Shown piece by piece: positions 1-59,520 of a DNA stretch of 64,000 bases. A model generated the notes under the pieces. That model did no database searches, had not been told where the DNA came from, and saw only the letters and a program-made list of their open reading frames with translations. The DNA is taken from contig JAYWIR010000042.1 of the NCBI GenBank assembly GCA_036172245.1, forward strand, positions 1 through 64,000, read 5' to 3'. Positions within the stretch are counted from its first letter, which is position 1. Each line of letters begins with the position of its first letter. The stretch comes from Raillietiella orientalis. Lineage: Eukaryota. Position numbers and translations under genes: made by a program.

Positions 1-188
1 GAAAAACCATCAAAAATTATCCAGCTGTTGATAATTCTTTCTACATAGAGCCTGCTCCATCCCTAATACTGTAACACACTGTTCATGATATGCTCAAGTT
101 TAATGAACATTGCTGAGATGAAATATGCTGCTTCAGAAAACCAAAACCGTCAGTGGAAAGTTCAAATATCGAATTCCGAAAAGCCCTT

Positions 189-3100
189 TTATTCTGCTAT
201 CTCTGAACGTGATAAAACAGTTTCAGACATGGTACTTCTCATTAAAGCTGAGATTTTCAACCAAATGGCAAAAATGATACAGTATGGGTACACAAACCTG
301 CCAAGCTGCGCGAAGAAATCAAACTGACGGGCAAAGAGACATAATTTATTCAAACATTCAAACAAAATATAACATTTTCTTGCTTCCTGTCATTTATTTA
401 TGAAAATTTGACCTAGAGTACATGAAGTCAATCGAACATTCAAAACACCCCACGATTGTCTAATGAAGCATACAAAGAAATGCGGCAGCTTCATAGCTTC
501 AATCATACATGGTGCTCTGTGAAACACAAAGCATGCACTTAATGCATCATCAATGTTGAACATCAACATCGTACTTGGATATCCTTCTTTTTATTTAAGT
601 TTCAACTGCAAATAAAAAGCAAAAAGTATGCAATTTTGTCGGCTGAAACGGGGGAAACAACATTCCCATCATGATATTGGCCTTGAATTTCATATGATTA
701 TGCAATAACTCCATGTCTCATTATGACTCAAAATCTTAACACACTTCCGTTTGCAGGCCACCCCCAAAAGATCGTCAGCAATACAAAGCACTGTCTGTGA
801 ATCTAACCACAGCAAAGAAAATCAATCGCTCTGCCTACTGCAAGAAGCATCATTAGTTAGTTGTTGGCCTAACTGGTAGCGGTCTGCTAAGAAATAAATA
901 AAATCAACTATTCTCCAAAAGATTTCCTTCCAAGGAAGGCGATAGAAGTCCGAAAGTGAAGTGAAATGAGCAGTTCCCCCTGCTGCCAAGCAGCAAGCTC
1001 CACAAGCTTCAAATCCAGGATGTGTGAAGAGGCTGCCAAATAAACCTCGTATAGCCACGCCATTCGCCATTACGGAGACGAATATGGAGCGGAACATGGA
1101 TCTTATGCTACAACGTAACTCGTCTATTGATGAGGTTGCTTTCGGCCCGGATATGAAGGTGTCCGAAATCAGTGTGCGCGAGACATTCAGCACATCATTC
1201 GATCAGCTATAAAACATCGCTGACCAAACATATGAAGAAAATCCACTCAAGAATCTTTTCCTAGATCAGAAGATTGAGAAAGCCAACATGTGATACTATG
1301 CCTCAGCAGCGCTCCGGCTACATCTGCTGGACATAAAGGCCAAGCAAGCAAAACGGGCACTGACCTTGGAGGAAAAATAAATACGTAACGCTACAACAGA
1401 TGGGAAGTTCAACTACCTCAGCCCATCTTAGTTAACATCAGTCGGCGATTATGCTGACGAAATGGGCAAAAGATCGGGGTTGAACATTCCAAACTTACCG
1501 ACCACAACGGTGCATGGGTTGGGATGGTATTAAGCAAATGCTGCGAACCAGGAAAATCATAACCTTTTCAAAGAGGTTCCACGCCTGGGAATCACTGCGA
1601 ACGGTGTGATGACCCTAACATCCGAAGCTGAAGTGCCAGATATCGATTATAGAATAGGAAGGCCAGATGTTCTAGGTGGACAAAGAATCTCCTAGGTAGA
1701 ATGAATATAACTCCTCAACGTCAAGAGATTAAGCAGAGAGTAGGTAGCCGAAGAATAACCATCACAACGCTTCCAGAATACGTTCCTAGAAATCGATTCA
1801 ACCTCCGTTATCTGAAGTCGTTGTCAGATATTATAGGGCAACAAACAACTTTGAAGATAACAAAAGGCTGTTTCAAAAGTCTGGACATCACTGGAACAGC
1901 GCCCCTAGCAATCAAGACCATACCAATCCGAATCAGAGACTAAGATCTCAACTGGACAAGAAAATTCCAGACAGTTTCAGCGAGAAGAGAAACTGCAGCA
2001 ACAATAAGAGCAGTATTGTATTTGGGTTCCAATTATATAAAGCGCCTGGACCAGAAGACCAAACAGAGGCCCTTGCTCATTGGAGCTGTACTGTCACTGA
2101 AGATCAGCCTGCCAATCAACATCCATGACAAATTCCAACGGCCTGGGCAGCCACATGAAAGTGGGCTGAAGGGTACTGCCGAGTTGCTTCCCATCTTGAA
2201 GGGTTGCTTTGCAATTTCAACATCTGAACTGTCTAGCCTTGTCTGAACATATATTCATGAGCATCATCCATAAAATTTAATTCCTACTTCAAGGAAATCA
2301 TAGTAAAACCTTCAACACTGCAACTTGTGGACCCTAAGAAGTTCACTAAAGGGCTACAATAGTCGGAAAATCCTCACTGATCCTTAAACAAATGAAGATC
2401 AATAAGATTCTATCACTGTCAGTGCTGCATCTGTGCATGTAATTTCCTTCTATCAGCATCAAATGAACAGGCAACCATCCTTTACACCACATATAAAGCA
2501 CCTCTGTAGGGAGTATGCAGCAAATACCTTGAAGGCACCTCCACTGTTTATCAATACAAAATACATTAATAGTAACCAATTACGAAATATCATATGGTAA
2601 ATCACACAAGTTAAAAACAGTTCCAGTACATGTATATTCTTGTGTATGCAGAATGTTAATTCGAAATTCTAAAAGAAAACATATACTGAAATCCCAGCTC
2701 TTATGACTGCATACTTGAACAGTTGCATGCCAAACCATTTTTGAAATAAGCTGATATGAATTGATAGGAAAAAAAAACACTTTAAAACATAAAGCATCCC
2801 TGAGAGTTGTGTACAGCACCAATGACCAATTCATTTACTCTTGAACAGAATGTCTCTTAACACAAATGCCACATCACATTCATGCAAGAGAGATAAGCAT
2901 TAGAAGAACTGCAATTCAATGCACTGACTGCAAAGGCCACCGGTAAGATGGTAGATGCCCTTTCACAAAAATGGATCAAAACAGCACCATAAAGATCATC
3001 TGCACTCCTAAATTCAACTGAAACTACTGATTGCATATGAAAAAAAGTAAGATGCAATGCGAATTGAATTAACTAAATTCATTTCCAAAAATAATCCAAC

Positions 3101-3886
3101 TTAGTCGCCGAAACGAATTGCTAAAATTGCATAAAAATGAAAGTATCATACACTAGCATTTCTTGATGCATTCTTTAACATGTCTACAGTCAGAAAAGCA
3201 AAAGCATTTAAGTAAACTTACATGCTGCATTTTTCCTTGTACAGCATCTTGCTATCCAGCTAAGTCAAATCGTGCTTGAAATCCTAATACAAAGTGCATA
3301 CAAATGTTTTCTTCGGATAAATCAGGCCACGGAAGTCTTTTGTGATGAAAAATGTGCCAAAAATGGAGTCTGCAATAGAGAATATGAGCATGAAGTATTC
3401 TAGGATTTGAATTATACTTTACAGTAAACCAATAATAATGGTGAGAAATAGTGGGAGTAGCAAAAGGGGTGAACTTTTTTAAGAGGTAGTGATGTGTTCT
3501 TGTGACTGAGATTCCTGATCTCAGAAGAATAGTATTAAGAAGAGTAACTCTAAGGGGGATTGTAGTAAAATATTACATATGGGTCAAGAAAATCTAAATT
3601 ATGGATTAACTCTCCGTCTGGAATGGAAGAATGAGCAATAAATACACATCTTCATCTCCAGGTAATACAACTGATTTGAAGACTACCAATATTGAAAAGA
3701 TGTCAAAGAAAGGAAAAAGTTGCAATCAGAAATTTCTCACTGATCGAAAATTCAGTTTTAAATTCATACCTTGAACTCGAACCAGGGCTGTTATGCTGGG
3801 TATCTTCCAACATTTGAAACAGATAACAACACAATTCCTCCTTTTGGGTACGAGACGATACCCACACTTCGCGAACCACTTTCTGC
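189..3886 (-). CDS. 3' part of an unidentified multi-exon host gene (5' exons probably further right, up to ~6.3 kb)
   Basis: Hand-built chain of GT-AG exons with mutually consistent phases and no internal stops: 3886-3770, 3369-3302, ~3026/3017-2941/2929, 2543-2528, 802-745, 516-413, 247-189 (ends TAA). Peptide: QKVVREVWVSSRTQKEELCCYLFQMLEDTQHNSPGSSSRLHFWHIFHHKRLPWPDLSEENI..EFRSADDLYGAVLIHFCERASTILP..WRCLQDSQTVLCIADDLLGVACKRKAPCMIEAMKLPHFFVCFIRQSWGVLNVRLTSCTLALMRSTMSETVLSRSEIAE*. Introns are AT-rich. Protein family not recognised. Confidence 0.6.
930..2170 (+). pseudogene. Endogenous viral element: decayed capsid-protein gene of a partiti-like dsRNA virus
   Basis: Reading through stops and a few frameshifts gives ~400 colinear codons: ISVRETFSTSFDQL*NIADQTY...YYASAALRLHLLDIKAKQAKRALTLEEK*IRNATTDGKFN/PQPI/SVGDYADEMGKRSGLNIPNLPTTTVHGLGWY*...HNLFKEVPRLGITANGVMTL.../TKNLLGRMNITPQRQEIKQRV...EYVPRNRFNLRYLKSLSDIIG...IKTIP...NWT.../VFGFQLYKAPG...HWSC...P*QIPTAW. 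The motif order matches my recollection of arthropod-associated partiti-like virus capsids. The segment is more GC-rich than the flanking intron. Confidence 0.8.
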
Positions 3887-4749
3887 CTACAACATATCAG
3901 GGCAGTCATGCTATTTCAGGATTGAGAAAGAAACAGAACTCATAGAATCCAACTGCTTATTTGAATAGGACTTTAAAGCAACGCTTGAACACATTTTTAT
4001 AGTTTAAAAAAATATTAAATGTCAGAAACTTTGAGTCATGCTGCTGATTAGAAGGATAAGTGAATAGAATTCAATCCTGCTTTGTCAACAATTCCTTACT
4101 TTCAAAGTCCCAGTCACTCTGCATGACCATTTTTCTTGATTTTAATTTAAAATGCATTTCCTAGTTGGAGTTTCTGAGGGTTCTTAGCATATTTTTTTGC
4201 TTGTTTCTCTAGTGAAATACAGCATGTTCGCTCCTTGGATGATATTTTTTGTAGTGCTAGTTGTGTAGTTCTAAATCCGGTAATGCTGTAACTGAAATAT
4301 ATTGACATAATAGGACATTCGCGACTGTGATATTCACTATTTTGCAAAACGATAATTCATCAAAGCTATAAGTTAGAAGAAGAGATCATTTCATTTATTC
4401 GGCTGTGGTATGCAGAAATACGTGTACAATCTTCTATTTAGGAATGCTCTATGGAGCAGATAATAGTTACAATAGAAGAGAATTGTTTTTCTATCTAATC
4501 TACTGATTCATGATGGGAAACAGACAGAAAGTACACGATCTATTTAACTCAATGGTTTATTTCATGCTCACTGAAAAAGTTGTATTATACTGCTGGAAAA
4601 TAGGAAAATTTTCTTAAGTGTCAAAAACTTCAATAAAGCTCAAAGGGAAAATTTATGACTGCGATCTACTTCTATAATTCAACAATAATTTGTGGAATGT
4701 GAATAAACCTAATGCTTGTCTAGGGTTTATTCAACTGGAGCCCACCATA

Positions 4750-5862
4750 TATCAGGTACTAGCCGAAGCCATGGCCATAATGAATTGCGAGTCGTTCCCA
4801 TGGCAACGATGGCTCCCTTCCCTGGTCTGGTGTATTACTAAAGGCTAGGGATATTCAAGAAAGCTGATTGGATACTCATCCCTATCACCATCATGCAACT
4901 CGTCAAAAAATGCATGCTTAAGTCAATTAATATGTAAATGCCATTAAATCTCACTCTCGCCGACCTATCCTATGCTAGGTCTGCTAGGACCAACCAACTG
5001 AATAAGATCTTTTCGAACGATGCTGAGGTCGCTGATGAAAAAGAAAATGCCGACAGCACCAAAGATTGAAACTTCGGAATTTTTTTGCCGGAAGTGATAG
5101 ATGGAAAGTGCAGAAAACCGAGACGATGTCAAAAGCATATGGAGGATGGGAGGATAGGCATCCAAAAGACTCGAGATAGAGTAGATGATCGACGGAAGAA
5201 TCCTTAAAATCACGTATGATTCTCGAAGCTGACGAGCATGTGAGGAGGAAAATTGTCCCAATCTTATACGCAGCCCAAAGGAAGGCAACATGGACATGTA
5301 CATCCTTTATGGAAATACATCCAGATCAGACGACAACCATGTTCTGTGTTGGGTAGTACCATACTTCGAAGCATATCCTCTCCAGCAGTGGACGTATATC
5401 CTGCTCATTATATCTTCTCTAGATACATGTAGCGCAATCCAACAGTGGTAGAATCCGACAACTTCCTGACTGTGTGAGACTTCACCAGGAAAGGCACAGA
5501 TCGTCTATGACGAATGAGATGTGGAAGATGAAAGAATCTTTTGATTATATCCAAAACAGGCACATCTACAACCAGAGCGTAATTACAGCAATGCATGAAG
5601 AGCTGACGACCCAAATCGAGAAGCCTACATGGAAACACTCGGTGTTGGCAGTCTCTAGCCAGTGCGTTTCGGGAACAAAGCCAATGCTAAAACCTGGTGC
5701 TCCCGGAATAAGGGAAAACACTCATTATGTACGTCCTTTTTCCTTATGAGTACTCACGAGCTCACAGCGTTGGAGGAAGACGGAGAAAACTGGCTCTACA
5801 CTTGCCTTCAAAGTGCCCGCCACCATATGAGTGATGATAGTAGGATATCTCTACGATATATT
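4750..5862 (+). pseudogene. Candidate endogenous viral element, possibly a rhabdovirus-like glycoprotein fragment
   Basis: Purine-rich, higher-GC island in AT-rich DNA with decayed coding character. Composite translation: ADLSYP...KKMPTAPKIETSEFFCRK/RWKVQKTET...AVDVYPAHYIFS/DTCS...LCET...KTWC...LCTSFFLMSTHEL. The spacing loosely resembles the rhabdovirus G ectodomain. Heavily disrupted. Confidence 0.35.
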
Positions 5863-6827
5863 TAAAAATCTACGGTATTACTGGGGCACATAGTAGAAGC
5901 ATAATCTGAGCCATTGTCTGTAATAAATGAACTCTCTTTCATTACGGAAAATTTGAGAGTCAAAAAAAACAAAGGAAGGAAAAAGCACACAGATGGACTG
6001 TTAATTTAGTGGAAACTCCTCCCTACATTTGTCTTCCATAAACATGTAGGGCGAGAAGCGATGTATAATAACAATTCAGAAATAAATAAAAGCTTAACAA
6101 TTATTCCATCAACAGATGTAATTGTGCTTTGACCTAAGCTTTGGTTGTAATCTGAACAAATGGGGAATTCACATTTGATTTGAGAAGTGTACTTCATAGT
6201 TTCTTGCATTTAAAGAAGGAAAGCATTAAAACACAAACTGAAAAACTGGAACATATTTGAATTTCTATAGAAGCTCGGATAGAAAAGTATCAATATTACA
6301 ATTTTTGGCGAGTGCGCAGAGGGACTTACATATACATGCCGAATAATCAGTCTATCCGCTATTTTATGGTCCTAACTGCATGTTAGTGTAACTGCCTATT
6401 TTATGGCTCTAACTGCAAAATTGAAGGCAGAACTACTATGCTTCAAGATATGTTTTGGGTATCAATCATGAGGATTCTCCCGATTTCTTTGAGATTTATG
6501 AAACATGAAAACAAAGAGGAAACTGAATCTCTTTAGATAATTATATTACTTTGGGTTTTGAAATCTTCTTACTTGAACTAGTTTTCCATTGGTCTTTATA
6601 TTCTTTCACAAGATTGCTGCTACGTGCCTTGAATTCAGTCTCATAAAAACTTTGAAGCATGCATTTGATTTAAGAAGCACTTTCTTATTTTCGTACTCTA
6701 AAGAACAAAAAAGTGTGTATGAAAAAATGATCACACATTGATAACTATGACTAGAAGTTAATTCGAAAGGAGTTTAAAAAACTATAAATGGGAAAAACTT
6801 CAAGAATAATATACGGATGTGCAATTT

Positions 6828-6910
6828 ATATATATGTATATGTAATCTTTGAAGTTCTCTGTAAGAGTCCTACGTTCTCTGTCTGTTTCGCTCCTTCTCT
6901 CTCTATATAT
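6828..6910. repeat. Short (TA)n and (CT)n microsatellite-like tracts at the AT-rich/GC-richer boundary
   Basis: tatatatatgtatatgt at ~6828-6843 and cttctctctctatatat at ~6894-6910. Confidence 0.6.
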
Positions 6911-7049
6911 CATCATTTGTGATTTGCCATCAACTGCGAAACTGCTCAAATTTGTGTGGAAACACTCGATCCCTGAGATGATAACTGCTATACAATGATG
7001 CTGATGTGTCTAATTGGGTTTGGATGAGGGATGGTGAAGCATGCCTGAT

Positions 7050-8730
7050 GGCTAGGTCATGTTAAAGGGGTATCTGAAAAAGTATGAAGGTCCGGGCAAA
7101 AACTTCAGTCTTCATTCCAGGCTTGATGCAGATGCGGCTGCTGCAAGAGCAAGTGTCTTAGTTATCTTCGGCTCGCATGGGGCAACGCAAACTCGATACA
7201 TACCTCTCGCGAAAAACTGCTCACTGCGTTCTCTTTGAAAGACCCAGGCGTGCCACAGAAATGAATTTCCAGCGGAGTAATGCAATTTTTCTTTTTGTTT
7301 TTGTGAGTTTTGCACTAATCACTTTGAGGCACGAGCCCGAGAACACAGAGGCGCTTTCCAACGCGGATTGTAGGAAGGAGAGTAAACATTAGGTTTCCAT
7401 AAAGCAAATGGAAACCTCATATTTATATATTGAATTATCAGCAGTCACATATGAGTGGACAACTCCGTGCACATCCCACTGCATCAGGAAAGGTTTCAGA
7501 AAATGAAGCGCGTTTACGTTTCTCGAGTTGCAGCTCTACTTCGATGCTCAGTGACAACGTTGTGGATGGAAAAGTCTGATGCAATGCCTCCATCATTGAA
7601 GCCATCAGGAACGACATCCACCATTCTCTCCGTGTGTTTTGGAGACGAAGTCTGAATGCATGGGTGGAACCTTACTGCATTCTCAGATGCTTTAAACTCG
7701 AAGAAGGACAAAAACGGGAAAAATGATTTTCAACGAAGAGGAACAGGTGGAGGCTCGATGATTGCAATACTTTTTGTCTCGATGATGGGGCAACGTAAGA
7801 AACTTTAAACAGCTCCAGTCCATTACTCAAAAAGCAAATTGCACCTAAAGCCAAAAGAAATACGTGAAATCCGAAATAGGCGAATCTTGTTGTTATTCTT
7901 AAAATGCAAATCAGACAGAGGAGGAAGCTGCAGCGAGATGGAATATTTCTGAGGAAATTAGGATGAAAAATCTCTCCAAACATAGAATTAGGGGGAAAAA
8001 AACTTTCAACAAACTTTCCGTGCTTGTTTTTTTTTTTTTTTTTTTTCAAAGAGATCATAAGTGGGCTCAACACAGACGCGGGGAAACCTAAGAAATTCTG
8101 AAGGAATATTGAGAAACTCCCTAGTCTTCTTTTGCAAATTGAGGCTTGTTTGTTTCATGCATATTTTACAAGCGAAATTCTTCTGCGGTGGTTCGTGGTT
8201 TAGCGCTGGTGGTTTCGGAGCCCCCCCTTCGCCGGCAATGCGGCAGACATTAAAATAACAGCAGCAGAAGGGGAATTTGGTATGATATGCCTCTTTATCG
8301 AAAGAGCAATGAAGGCTTTCTTGAACTTCCGATCACAAGGAGAGATGCCTTGTTTCAAGAGGAATTTCTTGTTTCGATTCCGTCTGTGGGAATGTTCTCC
8401 ATTGCGCCAAAACAAAATCAATACGACTACAAATAAACCCGAAATGATACTTTTATAATACTGAGCAGAAATGACTAGAAACGGCACTTACGAATAAGTG
8501 AAGCAATGAATTTATAATATAAATGAAAAAGATGTCACTAATTGTATGCAAATGCCAAGAACTTCTTGATTGATAAATTAAGGCTATTTTGCGCATTCAT
8601 TCAAAAATTTTGGATTCCGTATATCAAGAAGACCGGGTTAGTAGGAGGGAAAAGGTGCAAAAGCAACATATTTGCAGCAACAAGGGGCACTGGTCAGTCT
8701 GCAGTGAAGACAGAAATGCCTTTGCAGTAA
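7050..8730 (+). pseudogene. Decayed PPR gene relic
   Basis: PPR-like fragments in shifting frames: MLKGYLKKYEGPGKNFSLHSRL, FQKMKRVYVSRVAALLRCS, GMFSIAPKQNQYDY (cf. YGIxPxxxHYxC). Many stops. Confidence 0.4.
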
Positions 8731-9149
8731 TCACTTTTTCCATCGCTTATATTCGGATGCTCTAAAATGGGATGACGGTAGGATATTTCATTTTAACTGG
8801 ATTTCTTAGGCATGATGAGGGTAGCATGTGTAGGGAGCTAACGAAGAATGTTGCATGTTATCTGCATGTAGGGAATTGAATTTAAAAATTCTGAGACGAC
8901 ATACTGATACTTTGAGTACTTTCTTATGACGACCCGGAAATTGTCAAGCGTATAAAGCGGCCCATATGCCCCGATAGAACAATTCAAATTTTCATGCTGT
9001 ATTGGTCCCACTTTCGACGGTCGTTAACATCCGCTGGAACATGTGTATCAAGGAGTAGGAGGAAACAAGATTTTTCTTTAAGCTCGTGCGATGGTGTAGC
9101 AGTTTTTTCCTCTTTTTTCCCCTGTCTGCAGATCATTGGGAAGTTTGCA

Positions 9150-10300
9150 TTGAATGTTTGGAAACCCAAGCAGCAAATTTAAGGCGTATCTGCAGGACAC
9201 AAAAGATCAGACGGCTGCTACTCTAACATGGAATGCTGACAGGAAACTTGAAGAACTGGAAGCGTGGTCTGCACTCCACTCGTTACAATTTGGTTCCGGA
9301 GTGCCATTTTTCAGTGAAATTCGCTCGACAGTCAGAGAGCACGTTGTCCTAGCTTCTGATCATCCGATGCTAAAGCCAGACTTCTAGGCATTACCATGAA
9401 TCGGTGATGACTCACCGATTCAAGACAGTAACTCGATGCAAGGATTCGTGAAACGAAAAACTGGCCGTGGTGATTCCTTATTTCATAAGGGTGTCATGAG
9501 AGACCTGGAGATCGATGATTCAAAGGCCGGGAATGAGGATTCGTGACTACGAACGTTTCTCTACGAGTGAAAACTGACACACAATGCGACTATATTGCTG
9601 CATCAGAAAATGATGGGAAGATTCAGACACAGGACCCGCGAGCTCTGGGAACATTGAGCGACCAGTCCCTGGAGCCTGATCACATAACTGAATTTGCGAG
9701 GAAATGAAGAAACACGTTAACCAAGACGATGCACTGGACAAGGTCGCCAGCGGCTACAGGGATCCGGAACGTGAATCTGCTAGCGGTTGGCACGAAGAAG
9801 CGACCTACCTAAGCGGACACTCAGGATGACCATCTGATGTACTAACACAGAGGAGTCCTGAGTGGATACAGAACGAAGTATTGGACAGGCAGCAGCCAAG
9901 TCGAACTCTGCAAGGCACGTAAAGACAGAGACACCCAGCTTCACGTTCTCACCTGCCCAAATTGTTAACGCTCAAGGCGGTGACAGGTCTGCAGATATCG
10001 AAGACGATATAAAAGATCTTGGCAGGAATGTTTAAAGGAAACAGGAACGTTCCGCGATACGATCCCATGGTCTGCACCACCATCTTCCTCTTCATCACGA
10101 GCATCGTGATGAGAGGAGCATCAACGCCCTAGAGCTTTCGAAGAGCATCCTCCAAGGAGCGATTCAGAGGGAGATTGGAATGAAGAACTGCATCAGAGTA
10201 CCCGTCTGGACATGCCGTTAAATTTTCTAGAAGATGGTGGATGTTGCATAAGTGGATTGTCCACCAGAGCCTAGTAAGCCCCCAACGGAGAAAAAATCCC
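9150..10300 (+). mobile_element. Degenerate non-LTR (LINE) ORF2 fragment: end of APE endonuclease plus linker
   Basis: ORF 9154-9387 contains TLTWNADRK...VVLASDHPMLK (endonuclease TW...SDH motifs), followed by disrupted coding-like sequence. Confidence 0.5.
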
Positions 10301-10899
10301 GAACGGTAAAAAAAGGAAAGCGACACTCGGCGCCTGGAAATTTTGCGTGCAGAAACACTCGACAAAGTGTCTGCGGAAAAGCACAAATGGAGAATTTGCG
10401 TGAAAGTTTTTTAATGAATTCATCTCACCGCTTGTCGGACCTGTGGAAATTCTAGCTTCTGATCATCTGCAAGAATCGAGACTTGGAGTTTACATTGGGT
10501 GTAGAACGGCTACGCAAGACTGAAAGGGCTACTACATCCGTTCCCAGTCTCCCATCCCATCCGTTCTACTACATCCCGTTACTACATCCCCATCCTACAT
10601 ACTGCTTTTTCATACACCCTTCTGTGGTGCCAGGATTTCACTGCTTAATTAGATCTACTTCCTTTCCCAGAATTAGTACTGAGATGAAATTTTCGCACGA
10701 TGACAATGTCTTCATAGCAAAGAAAAATGAAAAATTTGATAGTAGTTCAAATAGTACAGCACTATGCTGACTATGTATGACTCAGTTTTCCTCTTTCAAA
10801 ATCACTTGTGGAGCAGGAAAGCGGAGGACTCGTGGCTGAAAATGAAGAACGTGCTGTACGATTTCTCTCTTGCAGTTTTCGTTTCGGATGTGATGATTT

Positions 10900-12060
10900 T
10901 GTTTTGCCTCTAATGTTAGAAGGTGCATTTAGGTTTCCGCTTAGGCTGTTTTACATGCAATGAGCGCTTGCAGACACTTGCGGGCTTATTTCCCAGAAAG
11001 CTTCACGCGTTTCGGGATAGCACGTAAGCACAAGAGGATTACGTGAGACGTAAACTGGATGTGCATTATAGGTAGACATTTCTTCTCCAAATGACAGAGA
11101 GAAGAAAGAGGCAAATTCATGCTTTTTCATTCCTCCTTTTTCCAAACATTTTGTAGGTCTCTAATGAATGGTGTCGTCCACAGTAGTGGTTCAGTTTGTG
11201 AATGTCCTTCTGGAACTGCATCTGCATCGTTAAGTTACAGAAAGGACACATTCCGCTCAGGTAGACACGGTTTTGTGAGGTGAGTTTTGCAGGAGTTTTG
11301 TGAAGTTCAAGGCCCTCTTAATGTTGTTTGAAACTTGGCAAGCTCAGGTGCAGTTTTAGTCGCAGAGTGCTGGCTTCGTCATGAATACTTTCGTCCCCTA
11401 AACTAAGTAAGCAATGGTAGCATACATATAGAGTGCAGAATTTCCTTTCGGCTACAATGAGTGAGAATGGTCGTGCTATGAAATTTTCCGTGCAACATAG
11501 ATTTGGGGGATTACCAGCTGAACAAGATACTTGTATGTCCCGTGATGTGCTTTCTTCCTGTCTATTCTTTCAGGAATTCTTCCTCATTCTGCAACGGATG
11601 AATCGAATGCTGCTTGTTCCTGTCCCCAGAAGCGGGTGCTTGGCTGTCCACACGATGTGAGCAATCCGTTGAGGTACTCTTACTCTTTTCTTGGTTATCT
11701 TCTGTATAAATGCTTTGTATAGGAATTCTTGTTTGAAAATCTCCCGGAAAAGCTGAGAATAAATCATGGAAAGAGTTCAAGAACACACACTGCTAAGACT
11801 AATGTATGCCACCTTAAAAAGGGAATGACAGTGATGTGTCCGTGCAGCAGCACCAAACCAATGCAGATCTGTCTGTTTTTCTAGACAAGAGTGGAACAGT
11901 GGGAGTGAAAAAAACGGATGCAGAGAAATATAAAGTACTACAGAATGAGGTCTCCGGAAGCGATGAGTCAGCTCTGAAGAGGCTATTGAAATACCGTCAT
12001 CGACTACACGGGCTAGTCTTCAGAGTCTCCGTTGAACGGCAGCAGTCAACCTGTTTTTAA
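10900..12060 (+). pseudogene. Decayed PPR gene relic ending in an E-domain-like segment
   Basis: LSATMSENGRAMKF...GLPAEQDTCMSRDVLSSC (11433-), then VFLDKSGTVGVKKTDAEK...DESALKRLLKYRHRLHG (cf. VDLLGRAG...WxxLLxACRxHG). Confidence 0.5.
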
Positions 12061-12199
12061 TGCAGGTAGCGTGTGTATGCAGATCCTAGCCTCGGGCAGT
12101 CCCTACGTGCGACTCTGAATGCTAATGAAATTTACCTTCATGTTTCTTGGATGTTGATCAGATTTCAGCTTTTCTATGCACTTGAACTTTGATTATCTC

Positions 12200-15100
12200 C
12201 AAACGTCGACAGTGATCTCTTGTCTTTGTTGTCAAACCGGCAGCCCTATTCGTTTCTGAGAAGCCGCACAACTTGCGTCCGGTTTGTCATCCTCCTTCTG
12301 CCATTCGTGGCTAATCAACTTGATGACAGCTTCCTTAGTCTTCTTCAGTCTTTCTTCAACGACAGCAGAAGCGTTAGCTCTGAGGCAGTCCGGAGGGATC
12401 TCAACGTGCTCCTTGCCGGTGATTTCCCATTCAGTTCGGAGCTGCATGCTTCTTGTCCCTGCTGTAGGAAAGAAGGAGTCGATGTCGAACTATCAATCGT
12501 CCTGTATCCCCCGTGAAGCTAGAATGGCAGCCCTAGCGCTTCCGGCAGGAGAAAGGCAAAAATCAGGTGATTTCTCCACCGGAATCGACCGAATTCTGCT
12601 ATCGGTGACAGCTGTTTGATCGTAGGGGAAGGGGGATTCTGAGTGCCTGGATGTATCTCGCTTATTTCTTTTCTACCCCTGAATACTCAACGAAACACTG
12701 CTCTTCTGGCTTGTCCACAAGGACTGCTGGCCATTCGTGCGCACCAGCAACCCGTGGAATCACACGGCAGAGCTCTTCCTCTGGGCGATCAGATCTATTT
12801 TCGTGAGGTGAGCTCTGACTGTGTCCGTGTTCCGGTGAAGTCTCCCTTGCGGATGTGGGTCATCCAGAGAGGAACTCTTTCTGCTTTTCCTCAGTGTACT
12901 CTGTTTTCTTTCTTACATTCTCGCGCATCCTCTGGATCATCCGGAATGCTTCTTTGTGAGAAGTGGTCAGAAGAGCTTCCTGTCGCTGAGGAAACATTAT
13001 ATTAGGAGCCGTGAGCAAAGTTATCTCCTTTTGGCGTGAAGTTTTTGGAAAGTCGAAAGGAGACACGCGGATTCGTAGCCACTAGGAAGGCTGTAGATGC
13101 TTTAGAATCCTGTAGGGTGGAAGAGTAGAGTGTGGAGCAGCTCCAGGGGTGGTCCGTTAACTCCCCTCCATCAACATTCCTCAACACGACGATACTGGAG
13201 GCATCCTGAGCTCTTGCATGTCTCTCTCACACTTAGACGACACACTGAGAAAAGTTCCGAAATACTTCCATGCTACAAACATTTCTATGATGCAAACTTC
13301 TGGAAAATAAACCCATAGTAAAAATGGACTTTTGTCAAGGAATTCCAAGAAAGAGTTTTTTTTTTCTCTTTGCCTGCGTGAGTTTCGGGAAAGAGTGCCT
13401 TCACGAACGAGGGAGAGATCAAGAAATTTCACGATAAGCTTCTTACCAGACTAAAGGAAACCTAGGGAGTACTTGTGGGGACATCTTAGAAAGCCCTCAG
13501 AACGTAAGATCAAGAAAAATCGAGGGACTCCGGTCTCCTTGATTGAGGTCCCTTGTGTAACTTCCTGGCTCTCCTAGAAAGACTGCGAAGAAAACTTCTT
13601 GGAGGACCTATTGATTCCTGGAAAAAAATGGATCATAAGGATGGATTATTACCTTTCTTACCCGTATACGTAAATACTTTGTCATTTCTTCCTGGGTATT
13701 AATTGGAAGGATTCCAGCTTTCTCGGGAAGCCTTCCTCATAAATAAAAAAAGAAAAACTCACGTTTGATTCCTCATGCTCCAGCAAGAAGGCATCCTTCG
13801 TAGAAAATCATGCATCTCTTGCGAATTCTCTTGTCACTTGTTCCTGGTCTCATTTTACTTATTCACCCGGTTTCTGAACAGAGAAATCATCGGGTTTCTC
13901 GGGAACGATGCTTCTGACCTCATTTGGACCCTGACCTCCTCATAAAATGAAACTTCGGGAAAAGTTCCACCTTCCACTTTGGCAGATTTCGTAACAAGCA
14001 GTGTTCTGGGAGTGGATCGAAACACGAAAAAGATCCGAGAACAGAAGAGAGCAGTGCACAAGGAATTCCAAGGATTCGACGAAGGTGGAAGATTCAGGAA
14101 TGGGAACAATCGAGAGAGGGAATGCTGGTACAAAAACTGCGACACTCTGCCTCCTCTTTCACCGGCAGTTGGCTTCCTTGTATCTTCTTTCTGTGCTTGC
14201 GTTTTTGAACCATGTCTCCGCTGCCTGAAGGGCGCACATTGAGAAGCAGCCACGCTGCTGGGGGAAAAATAATGCATCTCGAGATATGAATAGCTAAAGA
14301 AATTTCTTTACTTTTTCTTCCTCTAGAAAATTCCGAATAGAGAACCACGTTCTTCTACTTTTCTGGGCTCTAGGAATCCGAAAATCGAAATGCAAGAATC
14401 TATAGCTGCTTCTGAACCTCAATCTCAAACATCCCTCGAAGAAGGGAGCAAACAGGTAAAATTCAACCCTCTCTCTTTCCCAGTCTCAAAAAAAAGGCAA
14501 AAAAAAAAACAGATATTTGCACCGAAAGCTGCTGTGAAGGAAGTAGGTCAGAGCGCCGTTCCACTGCGGCGGTAAGAATAGAGTCTCCAGAGCACACAGA
14601 ATAAAATCTTCTGAACAAACAGCACATTTGGGAAAGAGTCTATGTGGGCAACGGAGAGAAAGAAAACGTAAGCATATGAATTAAGATTATTTTAAATGAA
14701 GGATCTCCAAATAGTCGGTTTACCAAGTCTTTTCCCCGTCGTTTCTTCTTTCCTTATTGGTCAGGACAATCCCTGAGTCGGCTCTGGAGTGTAACAACAG
14801 AAACTGCATACAGCAAAGACATTCTTTCTCTTTTCTTTCTTTCTCTTTTCGTCATATGTTGGAGTGCATAGAGAACTCCTGCATGGTTATCATTTTGCTC
14901 AAAGGTTTGCAAAAGTTGTAGGTCAGAAGAAAGAGACATTTTTCTTGCCTTATCCTCTTGCTCACCTTGCATCCATGGGATGCAAAGCAATGCAAGGAAG
15001 CCACGATACTTTTAGGACAACAAAGAGGAAAAATCTTCTCATTCTCTCTAAAGGGAGAAATGATCATAAAGAAGGGTAGGAGGCAAGATTAAATGGTGCC

Positions 15101-22594: not shown

Positions 22595-22895
22595 AATGCA
22601 ATGTCTTCGTTTGCTGAGAGAATAAATGATTCGGAGTGGAAAACTACCCGAGAATTTCCAAATGTTCCATACATGTGCATCATCTACTCTGCATTAGGAA
22701 TGAGTTGCCGTATCCCCTTGTGTACAGAATCGAAAACCCAGAGCGAAACTATTCATGGCTGTGAACTGTTTTATGATACTGATGACTTATTTTTGATGCA
22801 GAGTAGATGATGCAGATGTATGGAGCACTTGGAAATTCTTGGGTAGTTTTCGACTCCGAATCATTTATTATCTCGACAAAAGAAGACACTGTATT
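22595..22895. repeat. Imperfect inverted repeat, 100-bp arms (22595-22694 / 22796-22895), ~100-nt spacer
   Basis: Directly visible, with about 11 mismatches and no gaps by manual alignment. Also seen as near-identical peptides in ORFs 22577+ and 22749-. Confidence 0.95.
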
Positions 22896-32199: not shown

Positions 32200-35100
32200 A
32201 CCTCTCGCTTGAGATCATCGTCATATTGGTCTCTCTTTCACGCCCCAAAGGGAACCAACAGGAGCCCAACCAAGGATGTTGGTTTCAAATCTTCTAAGCA
32301 TACATTTGAGTCATCTACGGTTTCGCCTGTTATTTTTAGGGCGCGGTTGGATTCTCATATCCTGAGAACGAATCTCTCGGAGAGAACGTCTCGCTTCGGT
32401 TTTCGTCCTTCAATCTTGCAAATTTGTTCTCTTTCTCCAGCTGGAAGTTTTCTTTTATCCACATGCATTCTGATTCTCACTGCCGACCTTTTTCTTTCCC
32501 TCTCTTGTCGCATTTGCTTAATTTATGTTTCCAGTCATAGAGGCTACAAGGATTTAAGCTAATATCTCCATAGTCGGACACATCTGTCCGATGTCATCTG
32601 TCCCTTTCTTCACACCCCCTATCTACATATCTGCTGTACTCAATCTCCGCACTGTCTCATTGATTTTGCCGGAAAGAAACGATTTCCTGGAGCTGAATCC
32701 AGAGATCCGACTCTGAATCATCGTCTGGTATGAATAAATTTGAAGTGTTCCACCTTACCTATTCAGGTTTCGCATTGTAAACCAATGCCTTATGGTCATT
32801 AGTGATCACTTAGTTACAGCTGTAGAGACCGTCTTATTGGCATTTTTGGGGACTCATATCGAAATCCTTTACGTTTTAGCTGAAAGATCACTTTCAAGTA
32901 ATGGAGAGAAACATAAGAAACGTTTCTTTTTCTGGAAGCGTTCGTTAAGTGTATTATCTGAGAGCTTCCAACGAGTCATTCCGCTCCTCTGAACATAAGC
33001 ACTTTTTTATCACTTTATATTTTGGAGGGAACTGCAAATTTGCTTGATTTCATGAAAATATTCAAAGAGCAAAAATCTCCAATGAAGAACCCTTTTTTTG
33101 CTTTTTTGTATGCAATCTTCATTTTCATTTCGAGACGAATCAGGTGGTCTTTCCCGTGCAATATGGAGCTTTCCAGGAACTGTCCAGATATTCATTGATG
33201 TTGTCTAACAAGTATTTCTCCGAGGTCTTCCGGAAAAGGAAGAACCCAACCTTATCTTCCGCCACCCACAGGCAGGCTGTAACTCGTTTATGTCTCACAT
33301 TCCCTGTGGAAATATGTCTTCTCTAGCTGATATTGGCAGATCTCACTCTGCCAACTCTGTCAGGAGATTAGTAAAAGTTCATATATCGTATGCTTCACTA
33401 CTCACTCTAGAAGATTCGAAAACAGGGTGATTTCTGTTCGGCCTCTAGTTGAAGCGAGATTATGATGACATATCGCCGATAGAGAGCTGCCAAAAATTCT
33501 CAGCGAGCTGGCTGCGGCTTCGAGTGTGGATCAATGCTAGAGACGGTTCATGCTGTCCACTTTCAGGAGTATTCAGAAATCTCAAGTGCTCATTTATTAC
33601 ATGAAACGCTCTTACCTCTCACGGAGAAGTGCTGGCAGAAAGTAATGGGACCATCCACAGGCGTGCTTCTTTCTCCCAGGCTTTGGCAAAATGCAGTAGC
33701 AACTGCGCATTGGCTCGCCGTGATCAGTTCCAATTGGAAGAATTCTTCCTCCTCCCTCAAAGACCCTCCCTTTTTATCAGCCTCTCCTTCATCCATGGAG
33801 ATGCTTTGTACTGATTTCTTACCCTTCGAGCGCATGGCGTCCAGCCATCATCCATCGCTCTATCCGGGTTCCTCGGATCTTACAATGGGTTTCAAAAAAT
33901 GAATTTGTCAGTTGGTTGAATTCGAGGTGAAATGATGAATACTGAGATGATGAATTCTGCAGGCTGCAAGACTGCATAGAGGAAATGAGACCGCAAACCG
34001 CACCTGAGCTCATGAAGCAACCACCGGAGCCCTCTCTTCGGTCAGCTAGCTAACTAGCTTGTGTACCAACTGTTCACAATAGTTTCTGTCCTCTTCAGAT
34101 GCCCATGAAGGAATGACGATTATGACTTCGAAAAAATGCTAGTGAAGCATGAACTGTGCAGAATATGATTTTATTATTGTCTTCGAATATAATTCTCCTA
34201 AATAAATCAAATGCATCTTTGCAAAGATTGCACACAAAACCTCCAACAACATGTCGAAAAGATACATTACAGAGCGATGCCGCCGGATCCAACTATTCGG
34301 AGACGCGAGGTGCAAAGTAGGACGCAAAAATTGGACCTTCAAATTCATAGTTGGCAAGATCTCCAAATGAATGTCCTGGAAGATGTAACTCTGGAAAAAT
34401 GCTGGCCAGATTTCCACGTGGATGTCTCTCGTGCTGATAAAGTTCATTGAATACATTTTCTTTGTTCCAATTGGATCTCTGGATCTCTTCAGCGAACCCG
34501 TGTAACTGGTCCACTGAATGATTTCTCTTCATTCTGTAGAGCAAGGTTTCATGAGCCTTCCTGTGATTATGTTGTTGAAAAAATTGCAGCAAACACTCAC
34601 GTGGGTGATGGATGACAATAAAGATGATAAATGGAGCTTGGGAAGGGAAGTTTTTCTGCACATCCATCAAGCTGTAGAGATGAAGCAGCTCAATTGGAGG
34701 CTGCTGGTGTCAACTCCGAAAAACAGCTACGGCTGGTGAGACGAAAAAGGGTTTTTTGAGTGCTCTTTCCTAAAGTCGTAAAGGACCATTCCAAAAAACA
34801 TGGAAAACCATAGTTCATCCATGAATCTCGAGCGAGTGAAACCGTCTCACTCTGCCTTTTGAAGATATCGCAGCTGGACGAAAGGCAAACTCCTTGGACA
34901 CGGTCTGCTGATGTCAGAGACGCGGAACTAAGAAACTGAAGAAAACGGGGGATACAAGAAAGGTTTCGTGTATATCCACAAAAACTCTCTCGCATCCTGG
35001 TCACTAACCAAAACTCCGAAATCAGCAATGTGCTACCATCATAGCGGCTGAGATTGCCTGCTCACACTGTTGGAAGGTGAACGAATTGAAGGTGAGCTTT

Positions 35101-36200
35101 TGAACAGAGAAAGGCTGTAATGCCATTCTCCTATAAGAAGGGAAGTCAATCTGTAGAGGAGATTTCACATCAAGCTAAAATTGGTTACAGAAGATGGTGC
35201 ATTCGTTTAAAGCCAAAGTACTGCAGAGGTTTCAATGGAGATATGATTTTCCCGGTAGACGTGAAGATAAATTCGGAAATATCAACCAGAGCTTGAAAAG
35301 CCTTCATCTTCAGCGTGCAGCGTTCGAATCGAGAGAAAAGAGAAAATGTCCTCAAGATGAGAATTATTCCAAGCAAGCATGCAACCTTTGTAGTGCTTCA
35401 GGGCGCAGGTGGATAAAGACCTGTCCGATTCCCCAAACTGTGAGTTCTTCAGGTACCGAGTTGAATGGGGTGGCCGCAGCGGGTTCATCGGAGGAAACCG
35501 ACTAAGTACCTTCAATTTTATGACCGAGCATTCAAAGAAAACAAAATTTTCAAAAGGGGAGAATCAAATTAAAAAAGGTAGTCAACATCTGATGGTATCA
35601 TTCGTAATGCTACTGATGCCAACCCTGCAGCAGGGTCTGTTCTTTGGCGATGCCCCGAGAGGTTTGAAAACTGTGCTTCACCAGTCGTCTGCGTTCAGTA
35701 GCACTTAGAGGGAAAAAACGGCTGTCCAGTGGATTACTGACTTCATCAAATCCTTCTGTTTCTAAACGACGGATCAGGATTGTAGCTAAATGGAATGCAT
35801 AGAAACGATCCATCTCACTAGCAGAACGGAAAGGGATTTCTCAAACTCGTGAATGCTCGGGCTACTAACAGAATTCTCCGTTCTTGAACATCCCTAGGTG
35901 TCGCCTTATGAGATTTCTCATGCAGTAAGGCAAACAAGCAAAAGAACTCGCGGAAGTAGCAGGTTGGTTGACTTTCAGCCGCGCGTACCAGTGTAGAGTG
36001 TTCCTGAAACTCATCGATGACAGACAAACACAGAACAAACAGCGAGATCAAACCTGATCCACAGCAAAGAGGACATCAAGGCGGCACCGTAACTGACTTT
36101 AGGAAAATTCAAGAGAACTGAGCACATCTTGATTGCAACAAAATTTGAAAATCTATTCGAAAATCAGAGGCAGATGAAATTCCAACCTATAAAATGACTG
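32200..36200 (-). pseudogene. Long decayed PLS-class PPR relic (3' portion)
   Basis: GFVCNLCKDAFDLFRRIIFEDNNKIIFCTVHAS (34095-34292); KKGGSLREEEEFFQL...PVDGPITFCQHFS (33590-33835); FQQHNHRKAHETLLYRMKR; PGKLHIARERPPD...FEYFHEIKQICSSL (33010-33195). Confidence 0.65.
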
Positions 36201-50150: not shown

Positions 50151-51179
50151 CGCGCACTTTCACTCGGAGGCCTCGTCGTTCAGCCGTTCAGTTTTCAGGA
50201 GTGCATCCCTCTTCGGATGGGAGAGAAGAGTTCCTCGCTTCCACACGCGTCAGGCTCCAAAGTAAGGACCTTCGAGTAAAAGTGTGTGCGGAATGCTCCT
50301 TAAAAAACATCTCCTGTATTTTCTCAAGTCCCAAGCAGTGCTCGCTCCAATTAATAGCGCTACTTTTCTCCTTTCTGTGAAGCCCATCACGCATGCGTCT
50401 CTCTAGAGCGAACCTCTGCAAATTTGATATCCTAAAGAGATTCCCCAAAAGGCTACATCATACATGGCCTGAAAGCCATGGCCGTAATTCATCATGCATG
50501 ATTTATAGAACGGTCAGCATATGAATCACATGTATGCATGATTTCTGCGTAAATAAATAAACAGTGTGAGTAAGCGAGTTACTGAATGGCAACGCATTTC
50601 AGTCACGTTCCTTGAGATAGGATGAACGAACAATCAGATCAGAGCAATGATTTCTGCAGGACCAACTGAGCCTGTAGTACGTGATCGTGGCACTTCGGAT
50701 CCATAAATAACCTATTTCTGATTATCAGATGTGTGCGCTTGAACATCCTAAGAAAAACGGATGATTTACCGTTTCACCTCATTCTCTTTGTAAATATCAC
50801 ACTTCGAGAAAGGCGTTCCGAACTGTCATTAAGATGGCCTCTTTGGTGCAAATGAAAAAAAGAAGAAAAAAAATTAGAGAACCTCCCTTAGCTGGAAATG
50901 TTTTCCTATTTTCATCATCACCATCATCGTCATCAGTCGCGGGATTCCGAGACGAACTTTTGCATTCGATTTCCCCCTCGAAGCAGGAATGACCCTTTTG
51001 CAGAGGCATACGGGCGCGGTGCGGAGTGTCGAATGGATGCGGCGCTTTTAGAATTGGGGGGGCAGTTTTGTGATGGCCCTTTTTCGCTGATGCTGGCCAG
51101 TGGCCGACACAATCAGAATGATATTTCAAGCTGCGGCGCTGTTATGAAGATAAACCACCGAATCCAAGTCCCACCTAAC

Positions 51180-51950
51180 CTCCTCACTTAGCAAGTTGGA
51201 GAAGAAAATCTGTCCGCAGATAGATTCCTGAAGCTCCAGCTTGGTCCAAATGCCTTCTGGATTGCGGATTTCGTCTTAAGTTTGTCGAGATGGCAGATGG
51301 CCCTATAATAACTGACATCATCGTTCCAAGGCAGAGATTGGCAGGATGTGTCTGCTTCATCAAGCCGTGAGAGCGGCCTCGATTTCACTGCCGCCTTCGA
51401 TCGTGTTGCTCCGCATCACCTCGAAGAGATGCGCCTGCTTCCCTTACCCCATTTTGCACGAGTCCCCATGTTGATGTATTCGCGGATGTCCTCCCTTCGT
51501 ACGCGTGAGAGGAGCATCGAATTCATTCTCACAATTCTCTTCCGCTGATCGTCGCTAAAGGCTACTCGCATCCTTTGGCGTACAAGAAGAGGAACCAAGG
51601 TCGGGGTTCACTGCTGCCATTCTCCAGTGGGGAAAACCGGGGAGTAGCCCCTCCAGTTCCACCGCACATCCGCCTCGAGGTTCTCGTGCGGGAATAACCC
51701 CTTGCTTCCCAATCCGTTTCGCTAATGACTGCCTAACATGCGTCTCCACGGCTGAAGGCTAGTATCCGGAAGAAAGGGAATCTTACCGGGGGATAGAGAG
51801 ATAGCTGAAAACAAATTGCAGCTTGTACCTCTGCTTGGAAGTCGAATCTCACATTGGGCCCCCATGTGAGATCCGGTGCGGTGGATCCGCTCGAGATTGC
51901 ATCGAGTTCATCAAAGGTCGAGGTATCAAAGGTCATCTTGAGCATAAATT
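51180..51950 (-). mobile_element. Possible LINE ORF2 linker relic
   Basis: TRAKWGKGSRRISS (cf. RSRAKWxxxGExxS) followed by KSAIQKAFGPS (cf. KAPGPDG). Confidence 0.3.
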
Positions 51951-54800: not shown

Positions 54801-54899
54801 CTGAAAAAACCTTTGCAAAAAAACCTTAGAGGATAACAGGACTCAGTTTTATTCACGAGCACATCGCTCTCCGAGTCCAAAAATGGATCCCCAAATCTC

Positions 54900-56380: not shown

Positions 56381-56479
56381 TACTATTGATTTGTTTTTTT
56401 TTGTTTTTTGTTTTTTAAATCGATGGAAAATATTTTAATAAACTTCACAGCTTTTCTAGTTGAACATTTTCCTGTTAGC

Positions 56480-59364: not shown

Positions 59365-59520
59365 GTCTCGTCCCTCCCCCACTCGGGACCCTCTGCTGTC
59401 CCGGCCTGCTTGCTGGTGGACCCTTCCCTTTGTGTCTTGCTGTCTTCGGTTGGGAACTTTGTTCTCAACTGGCCTATTTTTATTCTATATTCTCAACGCC
59501 CCGGAGTGACCAGGTGAAAA
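59365..59520 (+). mobile_element. 156-bp retroposed insertion consisting only of the LINE 3' module (extreme 5' truncation or SINE-like)
   Basis: Flanked by the perfect 13-bp direct repeat acttgctctgcaa (59352-59364, 59521-59533). Ends CCCCGGAGTGACCAGGTGAAAA and is homologous to the 3' ends at ~20.0, 36.3 and 61.5 kb. Confidence 0.85.

Follow-up and report, generated by a model that had tools for sequence, protein, structure and literature searches.

The window analysed here, a 64-kb stretch of DNA, carries at 931-2155 on its plus strand what its sequence indicates, with a probability of about 0.9, to be a decayed non-retroviral endogenous viral element (EVE) derived from the capsid gene of a partiti-like dsRNA virus. 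The remnant is a single colinear copy without introns that runs through reading frames 1, 3 and 2 in succession (Table 1), and it covers ~85% (profile) to 92% (tblastn) of a capsid whose full gene would encode roughly 455 aa. These limits, obtained by profile and tblastn, agree with the interval 930-2170 proposed in an initial annotation of the same DNA.

The extent of the remnant was defined with a family profile (A1) built from 30 full-length relatives, comprising 451 positions and run on all six frames of the whole window. Matches to this profile occur on the plus strand only, where they form three colinear pieces, and the window's capsid copy occupies 350 of the 451 profile columns. By tblastn, all seven relatives tested pass from frame 1 to frame 3 and six of the seven continue into frame 2, while residues 6-248 of relative P0185 align to nt 931-1665. 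A second capsid copy was found in the window neither by tblastn (E<1e-2) nor by the profile in six frames. By profile and tblastn, the window preserves no recognisable trace of the first 5-29 positions at one end of the protein or of the last 39 at the other. An N-terminus near nt 906-935 and a C-terminus near nt 2170-2243, both placed by eye, were dropped, as the profile gives them no support. Every motif in the series listed by the initial annotation was located in the window: LLDIKAKQAKRALTLEEK, DEMGK and HNLFKEVPRLGI lie in frame 1 of the remnant, RFNLRYLKSLSDIIG in frame 3 and FGFQLYK in frame 2, and PQPI is read in frame 3 at nt 1413-1430.

Table 1 Features of the capsid remnant and its 3' flank (window coordinates, nt; profile of 451 positions)
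Feature	Position	Strand	Frame	Profile positions	Evidence and remarks
Possible N-terminal extension	931..966	+	1	1-29 unmatched	weak; P0185 alone (tblastn); two additional stops, 940 and 967, in this weakly aligned stretch
Capsid remnant piece 1	967..1668	+	1	30-251	hmmsearch E 2e-46
In-frame stops, frame 1	1210 (TAA), 1291 (TGA), 1378 (TAA), 1429 (TAG), 1531 (TAA)	+	1
Frame-3 excursion (LPQPILVNI)	1411..1440	+	3		read-through score gain; family P-x-P-I columns restored
Frameshift, piece 1 to piece 2	between 1665 and 1680	+	1 to 3
Capsid remnant piece 2	1668..2027	+	3	~252-358	7 of 7 relatives shift frame here; hmmsearch match nt 1668-2057 to profile 252-382, E 7e-24
In-frame stop, frame 3	1941 (TAA)	+	3
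Frameshift, piece 2 to piece 3	between about 2009 and 2027	+	3 to 2
Capsid remnant piece 3	2009..2155	+	2	359-412	includes FGFQLYK; 6 of 7 relatives by tblastn; hmmsearch match nt 1985-2155, E 2e-6
In-frame stop, frame 2	2126 (TGA)	+	2
3' flank	2156..2500	+		last 39 unmatched	no poly(A) tail or target-site duplication

The remnant contains 6-9 in-frame stop codons and at least two, probably four, frameshifts, and together with the coverage given above these lesions bear out the original description of a near full-length, intron-free capsid fossil broken by stops and frameshifts. When the PQPI motif is read in its own frame, with X placed at both breaks, the profile score is 169.6 bits as compared with 156.6 bits for the single-frame reading, which suggests that an additional pair of frameshifts, compensating each other, lies around this motif. 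A genuine excursion of this kind would put the TAG at 1429 out of frame. We infer that the remnant has no function as a protein today.

Relatives and fold of the capsid family

What kind of protein did the remnant once encode? A phmmer search of 1.84 billion representative proteins returned 147 relatives at E<=1e-3, 59 at E<=1e-10 and 8 at E<=1e-30, and because the best single-stretch match reached E 8.9e-37 among so many proteins, chance resemblance is excluded. The profile search retrieved 69 proteins at E<=1e-5, among them 'Capsid [Hubei tetragnatha maxillosa virus 8]' and 'putative capsid protein [Ips partiti-like virus 1]'; these two named capsids match the window by tblastn at E 4e-59 and 2e-41, respectively. 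The highest identity of the window copy to any relative is 43.9% over 344 columns, and its identity to the Ips partiti-like virus 1 capsid is 39.8%. The nine intact or nearly intact relatives that were checked are all on contigs of 1426-1906 nt, and most profile-search matches lie on contigs of 1.4-2.1 kb. These are the sizes of a dsRNA2 segment, with the gene standing alone on a segment of ~1.5 kb, and the window copy, of which ~1.2 kb is recognisable, is compatible with one such segment. The partner polymerase segment is absent from the window as judged by Pfam on ORFs >=77 aa; such a partner is not to be expected in an EVE.

Genome-encoded relatives that were confirmed by the profile and carry an organism name come from seven species, all of them insects: Parthenolecanium corni, Abscondita terminalis, Euwallacea similis, Apolygus lucorum, Gonioctena quinquepunctata, Wyeomyia smithii and Cyamophila willieti. 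A protein of Osmia lignaria (P0105) was not counted, having no profile match at E<=1e-5, and one of Dissostichus mawsoni (P0118) is doubtful as a relative, matching in six short stretches of which the best falls against query residues 211-240. A tree was computed from 139 rows of 217 proteins after the exclusion of rows with <130 profile positions of the N-terminal half and of unlabelled rows with <200 filled columns, which left the Parthenolecanium, Gonioctena, Wyeomyia, Apolygus and Euwallacea copies out of it. The window copy belongs to no well-supported clade in this 139-row tree, and for this reason its nearest lineage is approximate; its end branch measures 0.99 against a median of 0.37.

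Several further searches returned nothing, namely Pfam on the three capsid pieces, the 'longer' class of a word-index homologue search, and IMG/VR and JGI metagenome contigs searched with the window's protein. The family profile run against PDB sequences gave a best match of E 0.17, which is unrelated, and fourteen metagenome loci encoding relatives have zero nucleotide similarity to the window.

Evidence from structure was obtained with an AlphaFold model of relative P0006 (pLDDT 88.5). The five top PDB structure matches of this model are partitivirus capsids, led by 8phh (E 7.8e-4) and followed by 3es5 and 7ncr; 8phh alone passes E 1e-3, with a TM of 0.33. Among predicted viral structures (BFVD), 59 match the model at E<=1e-3 with TM up to 0.68, led by the capsids of Verdadero, Netjeret and Galbut viruses and including that of Rhizoctonia solani dsRNA virus 5, a fungal virus. 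With the classical partitivirus capsids of plants and fungi the resemblance is confined to the fold (E 1e-8 to 1e-4). The capsid family is predicted to have the partitivirus capsid fold, a prediction drawn from the model of P0006 and not from the broken sequence of the window.

The 147 relatives, the named capsids, the segment-sized contigs and the fold of a relative uphold the initial assignment to the capsid of a partiti-like dsRNA virus. The further proposal that the lineage is that of arthropods rather than of plants or fungi stands in part: the sequence relatives are mainly arthropod-sampled and no named plant or fungal partitivirus occurs among the sequence-search matches, but the lineage extends beyond arthropods, since Rhizoctonia solani dsRNA virus 5 is related to it both in structure and by RdRp (PMC8623816).

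The host and the rest of the window

Pfam recognised no domain in 290 ORFs, of which 149 are >=100 aa and 141 are of 77-99 aa, and the 199 ORFs >=90 aa likewise gave zero matches. These scans covered 149 of 152 ORFs in the longer class, the other three overlapping the element and one of them having been Pfam-scanned separately, and 141 of 143 in the shorter class, the other two being pieces of the element that were also Pfam-scanned separately. A six-frame scan reading through stops over nt 1-13502 and 33001-36002 (16.5 kb) gave no Pfam domain. The window contains no dispersed repeats, tRNA genes or telomere-type repeats, and Rfam produced no match at gathering thresholds, with two weak miRNA-like matches at E 0.005 and 0.32. 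PPR-like and RT-like patterns are no commoner than in shuffled sequence.

Individual ORFs were also inspected. A homologue search with the ORF at 62805-63302 (+) was empty, and the minus-strand frame 62507-63367 was judged likelier to be coding; for the latter, Pfam and PDB gave nothing and Atlas recognition was low. A PDB search with one read-through frame of 49001-64000 (-) found nothing. The ORF at 34296-34709 (-) received an Atlas score of 0.91 for sulfotransferase, with 18 of 30 matches in that family set; this identity was rejected, being unsupported by Pfam, PDB and motif search, and the single-sequence model has a pLDDT of 43.

The base composition is distinctive. The observed/expected ratio of TpA is 0.40-0.69 in 8-kb blocks and that of CpG is 0.6-0.86, GC ranges from 37 to 58%, TAA and TAG stop codons are depleted to 0.73 and 0.52 of expectation, and a purine excess on one strand extends along all 64 kb. 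The window's TpA, GC and Pfam-blank ORFs are unlike those of most insects and temper the guess of an arthropod.

Which organism, then, carries this fossil? The named genome-encoded relatives all point, by analogy, to an arthropod as the most likely host, a reading that we favour with some reserve. Rather unlikely, by comparison, is a host that is neither plant nor arthropod (a protist, another invertebrate or a fungus-like organism), which would be an unrecognised host of the virus lineage. This reading draws on the odd composition, with its depletion of TpA and stop codons and its one-strand purine excess over 64 kb, on 64 kb of unique sequence with zero recognisable domains, and on the GC-rich half of the window, which by eye resembles coccidian DNA. 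Moreover, fungal viruses such as Rhizoctonia solani dsRNA virus 5 belong to the lineage (PMC8623816), and partitivirus CP-like genes are on record from protozoa (PMC12027680). Against it, candidate exons gave blank or weak results in homologue, PDB, Atlas and Rfam searches and supplied no positive marker, and the named genome-encoded relatives are all from insects.

A land-plant host is improbable. It would mean either that an arthropod-type partiti-like virus once infected a plant or that the sequence passed from an arthropod to a plant. The CpG ratio and GC range fit some plants, and the capsid is of an arthropod-sampled lineage and not of the alpha- or deltapartitivirus type described from angiosperms (PMC12027680). 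The initial annotation had seen a PPR-rich land plant here, a view left without support by the absence of PPR or any other plant-typical domain from the 290 ORFs >=77 aa and the 16.5 kb of six-frame read-through, by PPR- and RT-like patterns at the level of shuffled sequence and by the lack of dispersed repeats; no plant occurs among the organism names of the relatives. Its suggestion of an arthropod-to-plant transfer or a new host range depends on a plant host and, with no plant marker in the window, is left unsupported.

Were the host a plant or a protist rather than an arthropod, which we consider unlikely, the fossil would prove germ-line replication of this lineage in a very different host and so widen its proven host range. 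The true hosts of this virus lineage have mostly been deduced from metatranscriptomes, and it may alternatively be that the real hosts of many 'arthropod' partiti-like viruses are organisms that live on or inside arthropods.

Integration, flanks and age

In the window the remnant is contiguous with flanking DNA, and its GC is 45.4% as against 36.8% and 37.6% in the flanks. The hallmarks of LINE-type retroposition were not found: the 3' flank (nt 2156-2500) has no poly(A) tail, with a maximum of 11 A in any 20-nt window, and no target-site duplication was detected, the flanks sharing a single 9-mer, equalled in 113 of 300 shuffles, and no word >=10 nt. The absence of these hallmarks is weak evidence after such decay. 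A read-through scan of nt 1-13502 detected no reverse-transcriptase remnant in these 13.5 kb, and no related metagenome locus sharing its flanks was found. The statement that LINEs are abundant here fares poorly, since the Pfam scans found no reverse-transcriptase domain and neither dispersed repeats nor a target-site duplication or poly(A) tail was seen.

Because retroposition hallmarks and a nearby reverse-transcriptase remnant are both lacking, we can only infer the mechanism of integration. A capsid mRNA would have been reverse-transcribed in a germ-line cell, either by the enzyme of a host retroelement or by the viral polymerase itself (the latter being the proposal of one paper), and the copy would have been inserted once and would then have drifted as a pseudogene. 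The stop-codon density gives an estimated age of ~0.12-0.18 substitutions per site for the insertion, equivalent to tens of millions of years.

It is doubtful that the remnant still acts at the RNA level, perhaps by giving rise to antiviral small RNAs in the way proposed for insect EVEs in piRNA clusters: the idea comes solely from published work on EVEs of arthropods, the window contains nothing that speaks for an RNA role, and the element is isolated, without the other viral fragments or transposon remnants expected of a piRNA cluster. That the capsid is not integrated at all, and is instead a contamination or an exogenous virus contig that the assembler fused to host DNA, is scarcely credible, for although its GC lies 8 points off that of the flanks, 6-9 stops and 2-4 frameshifts are impossible in a replicating dsRNA virus, the long end branch matches neutral decay as DNA, and erosion has blurred both the 5' and the 3' end into the flanks, leaving no abrupt viral terminus.

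Comparison with known viruses and viral fossils

Among exogenous viruses, Hubei tetragnatha maxillosa virus 8 and Ips partiti-like virus 1 encode a capsid of ~446-461 aa, alone on a segment of ~1.5 kb. Such partiti-like viruses share the conserved motifs with the window copy, and the structural kin Verdadero, Galbut and Netjeret share the predicted fold. Unlike these viruses, the window copy is DNA, carries stops and frameshifts, and lacks recognisable termini and an adjoining polymerase segment.

ILR2-type partitivirus CP-like genes are reportedly a known counterpart in plants. These genes, together with those derived from deltapartitiviruses in eudicots and monocots, represent the same kind of event, in which the capsid of a bisegmented dsRNA virus became fixed in a cellular genome. 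In contrast to the window copy, however, the plant genes derive from alpha-, beta- or deltapartitivirus capsids, the usual source described for angiosperm CP-like genes (PMC12027680), and some are intact and expressed. The window copy does not fall among the plant ILR2 or deltapartitivirus-derived genes, as its named relatives are arthropod-sampled and the window holds no plant markers.

The closest parallels are found in insects. Ant capsid EVEs of the same lineage, the Partiti-Picobirna capsid group, have already been published, including Cyphomyrmex costatus EVE12, which was grouped beside Hubei tetragnatha maxillosa virus 8 (PMC6540820). The insect partiti-like capsid EVEs (those of ants and the predicted proteins of Abscondita terminalis, Cyamophila willieti, Euwallacea similis and other insects) belong to the same capsid family as the window copy and, like it, are single-gene, intron-free DNA copies of an RNA-virus segment and often pseudogenes. 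The window copy differs in having <=44% identity to anything searched and in falling within no supported clade. The element is therefore a real but ordinary EVE of a kind already well known from insect genomes: a trace of an old dsRNA-virus infection whose capsid is divergent for a family well represented among insect viral fossils, and which, to judge from its sequence, would represent a separate and apparently old integration.

Extent and decay of the capsid remnant

Translation of nucleotides 880-2260 of the window in three frames gave a long frame 1 with internal stops, followed by an open frame 3 and then frame 2. When the frame-1 read-through (P0001; 970-1692, with X in place of five stops) was compared with 1.84 billion cluster representatives, 147 proteins passed E ≤ 1e-3, of which 59 also passed E ≤ 1e-10 and eight E ≤ 1e-30; its top single-stretch match reached E 8.9e-37 with 42% identity. 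Thirty full-length matches of 439-466 aa were aligned, and the resulting profile of 451 positions, when compared with six frames of the whole window, matched the plus strand only, in three colinear pieces. The same frame order, 1, 3, 2, was obtained by tblastn with seven relatives, which found no second capsid match elsewhere in the window; the alignment of one relative starts at its residue 6, corresponding to nt 931. Because the profile pieces and the tblastn frame order agree, the description in the initial annotation of an intronless element at 930-2170, with about 400 colinear codons interrupted by stops and frameshifts, is upheld, and the motif series listed there is present in the alignment consensus (LLWxRIxxLKxK..LTxxE, PxP, HNLYEEIPxLGV, NTRFN...L...S and GFQLxKE). 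The element fills 350 of the 451 profile columns, with a highest identity to any relative of 43.9% over 344 columns; profile positions 1-29 and 413-451 were not detectable in its flanks. It is a genuine endogenous capsid gene of partiti-like viral origin, present once, old and defunct. A 126-aa open frame antisense to its 5' part (825-1202, minus strand) is most likely open by chance, stops being scarce in this sequence.

Capsid pieces and disruptions in the window
Feature	Position (nt)	Strand	Detail
Capsid piece 1	967-1668	+	profile 30-251, E 2e-46
Capsid piece 2	1668-2057	+	profile 252-382, E 7e-24
Capsid piece 3	1985-2155	+	profile 359-412, E 2e-6
Stops in weak N-terminal stretch	940, 967	+	
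In-frame stops	1210, 1291, 1378, 1429, 1531	+	frame 1
In-frame stop	1941	+	frame 3
In-frame stop	2126	+	frame 2
Frameshift 1	between 1665 and 1680	+	tblastn
Frameshift 2	between about 2009 and 2027	+	tblastn

The PQPI motif of the initial annotation lies in frame 3, at nt 1413-1430. When its own frame was used for this segment and X was put at the two breaks, the profile score rose from 156.6 to 169.6, and this 13-bit gain points to a likely compensating pair of frameshifts around it; if the pair is real, the TAG at 1429 would be out of frame. The standard genetic code allows 549 single-base changes of sense codons, and 23 of them yield stops. With six to nine stops counted over about 407 codons, the neutral divergence would be roughly 0.12-0.18 substitutions per site. 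At usual rates, the element would be tens of millions of years old.

Family, fold and phylogenetic position

No Pfam entry matched the capsid family. Names given by the sources of its relatives include "Capsid [Hubei tetragnatha maxillosa virus 8]" and "putative capsid protein [Ips partiti-like virus 1]", and the contigs of intact or nearly intact relatives measured 1426-1906 nt in all nine cases looked up, matching a partitivirus dsRNA2 segment in length. An AlphaFold model of one relative (P0006), built on the thirty-sequence alignment, was confident (pLDDT 88.5, pTM 0.80), and its top five Foldseek matches among solved structures were all partitivirus capsids, led by Atkinsonella hypoxylon virus (8phh, E 7.8e-4) and followed by PsV-F (3es5) and Pepper cryptic virus 1 (7ncr), with picobirnavirus capsids ranked below; TM-scores to solved structures were low (at most 0.33, normalised to query length). 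Among predicted viral structures, 59 matched at E ≤ 1e-3, and the top matches (E 1e-22 to 1e-14, TM about 0.65) were unnamed entries and the capsids of Verdadero, Netjeret and Galbut viruses, Plasmopara-lesion partiti-like virus 1 and Rhizoctonia solani dsRNA virus 5, whereas classical fungal and plant partitivirus capsids were matched at E 1e-8 to 1e-4 only. The names, segment-sized contigs and fold matches thus support the earlier judgement that the gene is partiti-like and nearer an arthropod-sampled lineage than the classical plant and fungal partitiviruses, with the caveat on that label that the lineage also contains one mycovirus described as proven (PMC8623816).

The window's sequence fell in no well-supported clade of a maximum-likelihood tree built from 139 rows, and its end branch was 0.99 versus a median of 0.37. 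The rows closest to it represent proteins of 452-460 aa on contigs mostly of 1.5-1.9 kb, two being of 3.7-4.2 kb; Ips partiti-like virus 1 ranked 19th of 138 by path length.

Genomic surroundings and route of integration

How might a capsid gene have entered this DNA? The initial annotation proposed LINE-mediated integration, which would have copied the capsid sequence into a genome described as a PPR-rich land plant with abundant LINEs. Neither description was reproduced, since Pfam families, dispersed repeats and an excess of the relevant patterns were all absent from the scans: Pfam matched nothing at E ≤ 1e-3 in 149 ORFs of at least 100 aa or in 141 ORFs of 77-99 aa, and PPR-like and RT-like patterns were no commoner than in shuffles, a weak test. 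Six-frame Pfam scans read through stops, covering 16.5 of the 64 kb, gave nothing at E ≤ 0.01 in 1-6002 and 6001-13502 and a single sub-threshold chance match at E ≤ 1 in 33001-36002. The window contains no tRNA and no Rfam match at gathering thresholds, and its repeats comprise one low-complexity direct family and one inverted repeat (22595-22705 / 22785-22895; 111-nt arms, 86% complementary, 79 nt apart). The latter, the sole structured repeat, could be a hairpin-forming element and is possibly a miniature transposon. The element has no A-rich tail, and any word that its two flanks have in common is shorter than 10 nt. Another published route is reverse transcriptase activity of the partitivirus polymerase itself (discussed in PMC12027680 and PMC8557412). 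At 45.4%, the element is richer in GC than either flank (36.8% and 37.6%), which would be expected of foreign DNA.

Across the window GC ranges from 37 to 58%, CpG observed/expected from 0.62 to 0.86 and TpA from 0.40 to 0.69 in 8-kb blocks; TAA is seen at 0.73 of its expected frequency and TAG at 0.52, and a purine excess on the plus strand is steady throughout. Most insects would seem to have genomes of a different composition, and in its GC-rich half the window may resemble coccidian DNA. Despite 199 ORFs of at least 90 aa, often open in several frames simultaneously at 42-48 and 60-64 kb, no Pfam domain, tRNA or dispersed repeat was found. The strongest three-base periodicity (62731-63285; about 7 versus a median of 0.85) overlies a minus-strand ORF of 287 aa with a high content of G, A, S and P (62507-63367) that is probably a real exon; it had no Pfam, PDB or Atlas match, and a homologue search with the overlapping plus-strand frame found none. 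A separate 138-aa ORF (34296-34709, minus strand) is placed by the Atlas near carbohydrate sulfotransferase clusters (Sulfotransfer_2, Gal-3-O_sulfotr; score 0.91, 18 of 30 matches), several of them mainly arthropod, a lead unconfirmed by Pfam, PDB or single-sequence fold (pLDDT 43).

Host of the element and known precedents

Chromosomal relatives are labelled as coming from Parthenolecanium corni, Abscondita terminalis, Euwallacea similis, Apolygus lucorum, Gonioctena quinquepunctata, Wyeomyia smithii and Cyamophila willieti, and the family profile matched all seven; none of the names was that of a plant, fungus or protist. Two further labels, Osmia lignaria and Dissostichus mawsoni (a fish), are probably spurious. 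Several of the 16 capsid stretches in the protein of P. corni, a scale insect (P0004, 1976 aa), cover identical profile positions (159-271), and this prediction looks like capsid-derived fragments repeated in tandem that were annotated as a single gene.

Given the company the capsid keeps, we favour an arthropod host, with a probability of roughly 0.6. Another non-plant eukaryote is a less likely host. A plant host is improbable: a cross-kingdom record in a plant is unsupported by anything in the window, and that reading depends wholly on the identity of the source assembly. An artefactual origin of the capsid sequence is very remote.

Precedents have been published. Five Partiti-Picobirna capsid endogenous viral elements are described in ant genomes, one placed alongside Hubei tetragnatha maxillosa virus 8 (PMC6540820), and Partitiviridae are reported among the commonest sources of such elements in bumblebees (PMC12922265). 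A 2025 survey reports that plants, insects, fungi and protozoa carry partitivirus CP-like genes, those of plants deriving from alpha-, beta- and deltapartitiviruses (PMC12027680). The element is a new instance of this well-documented kind of viral fossil.
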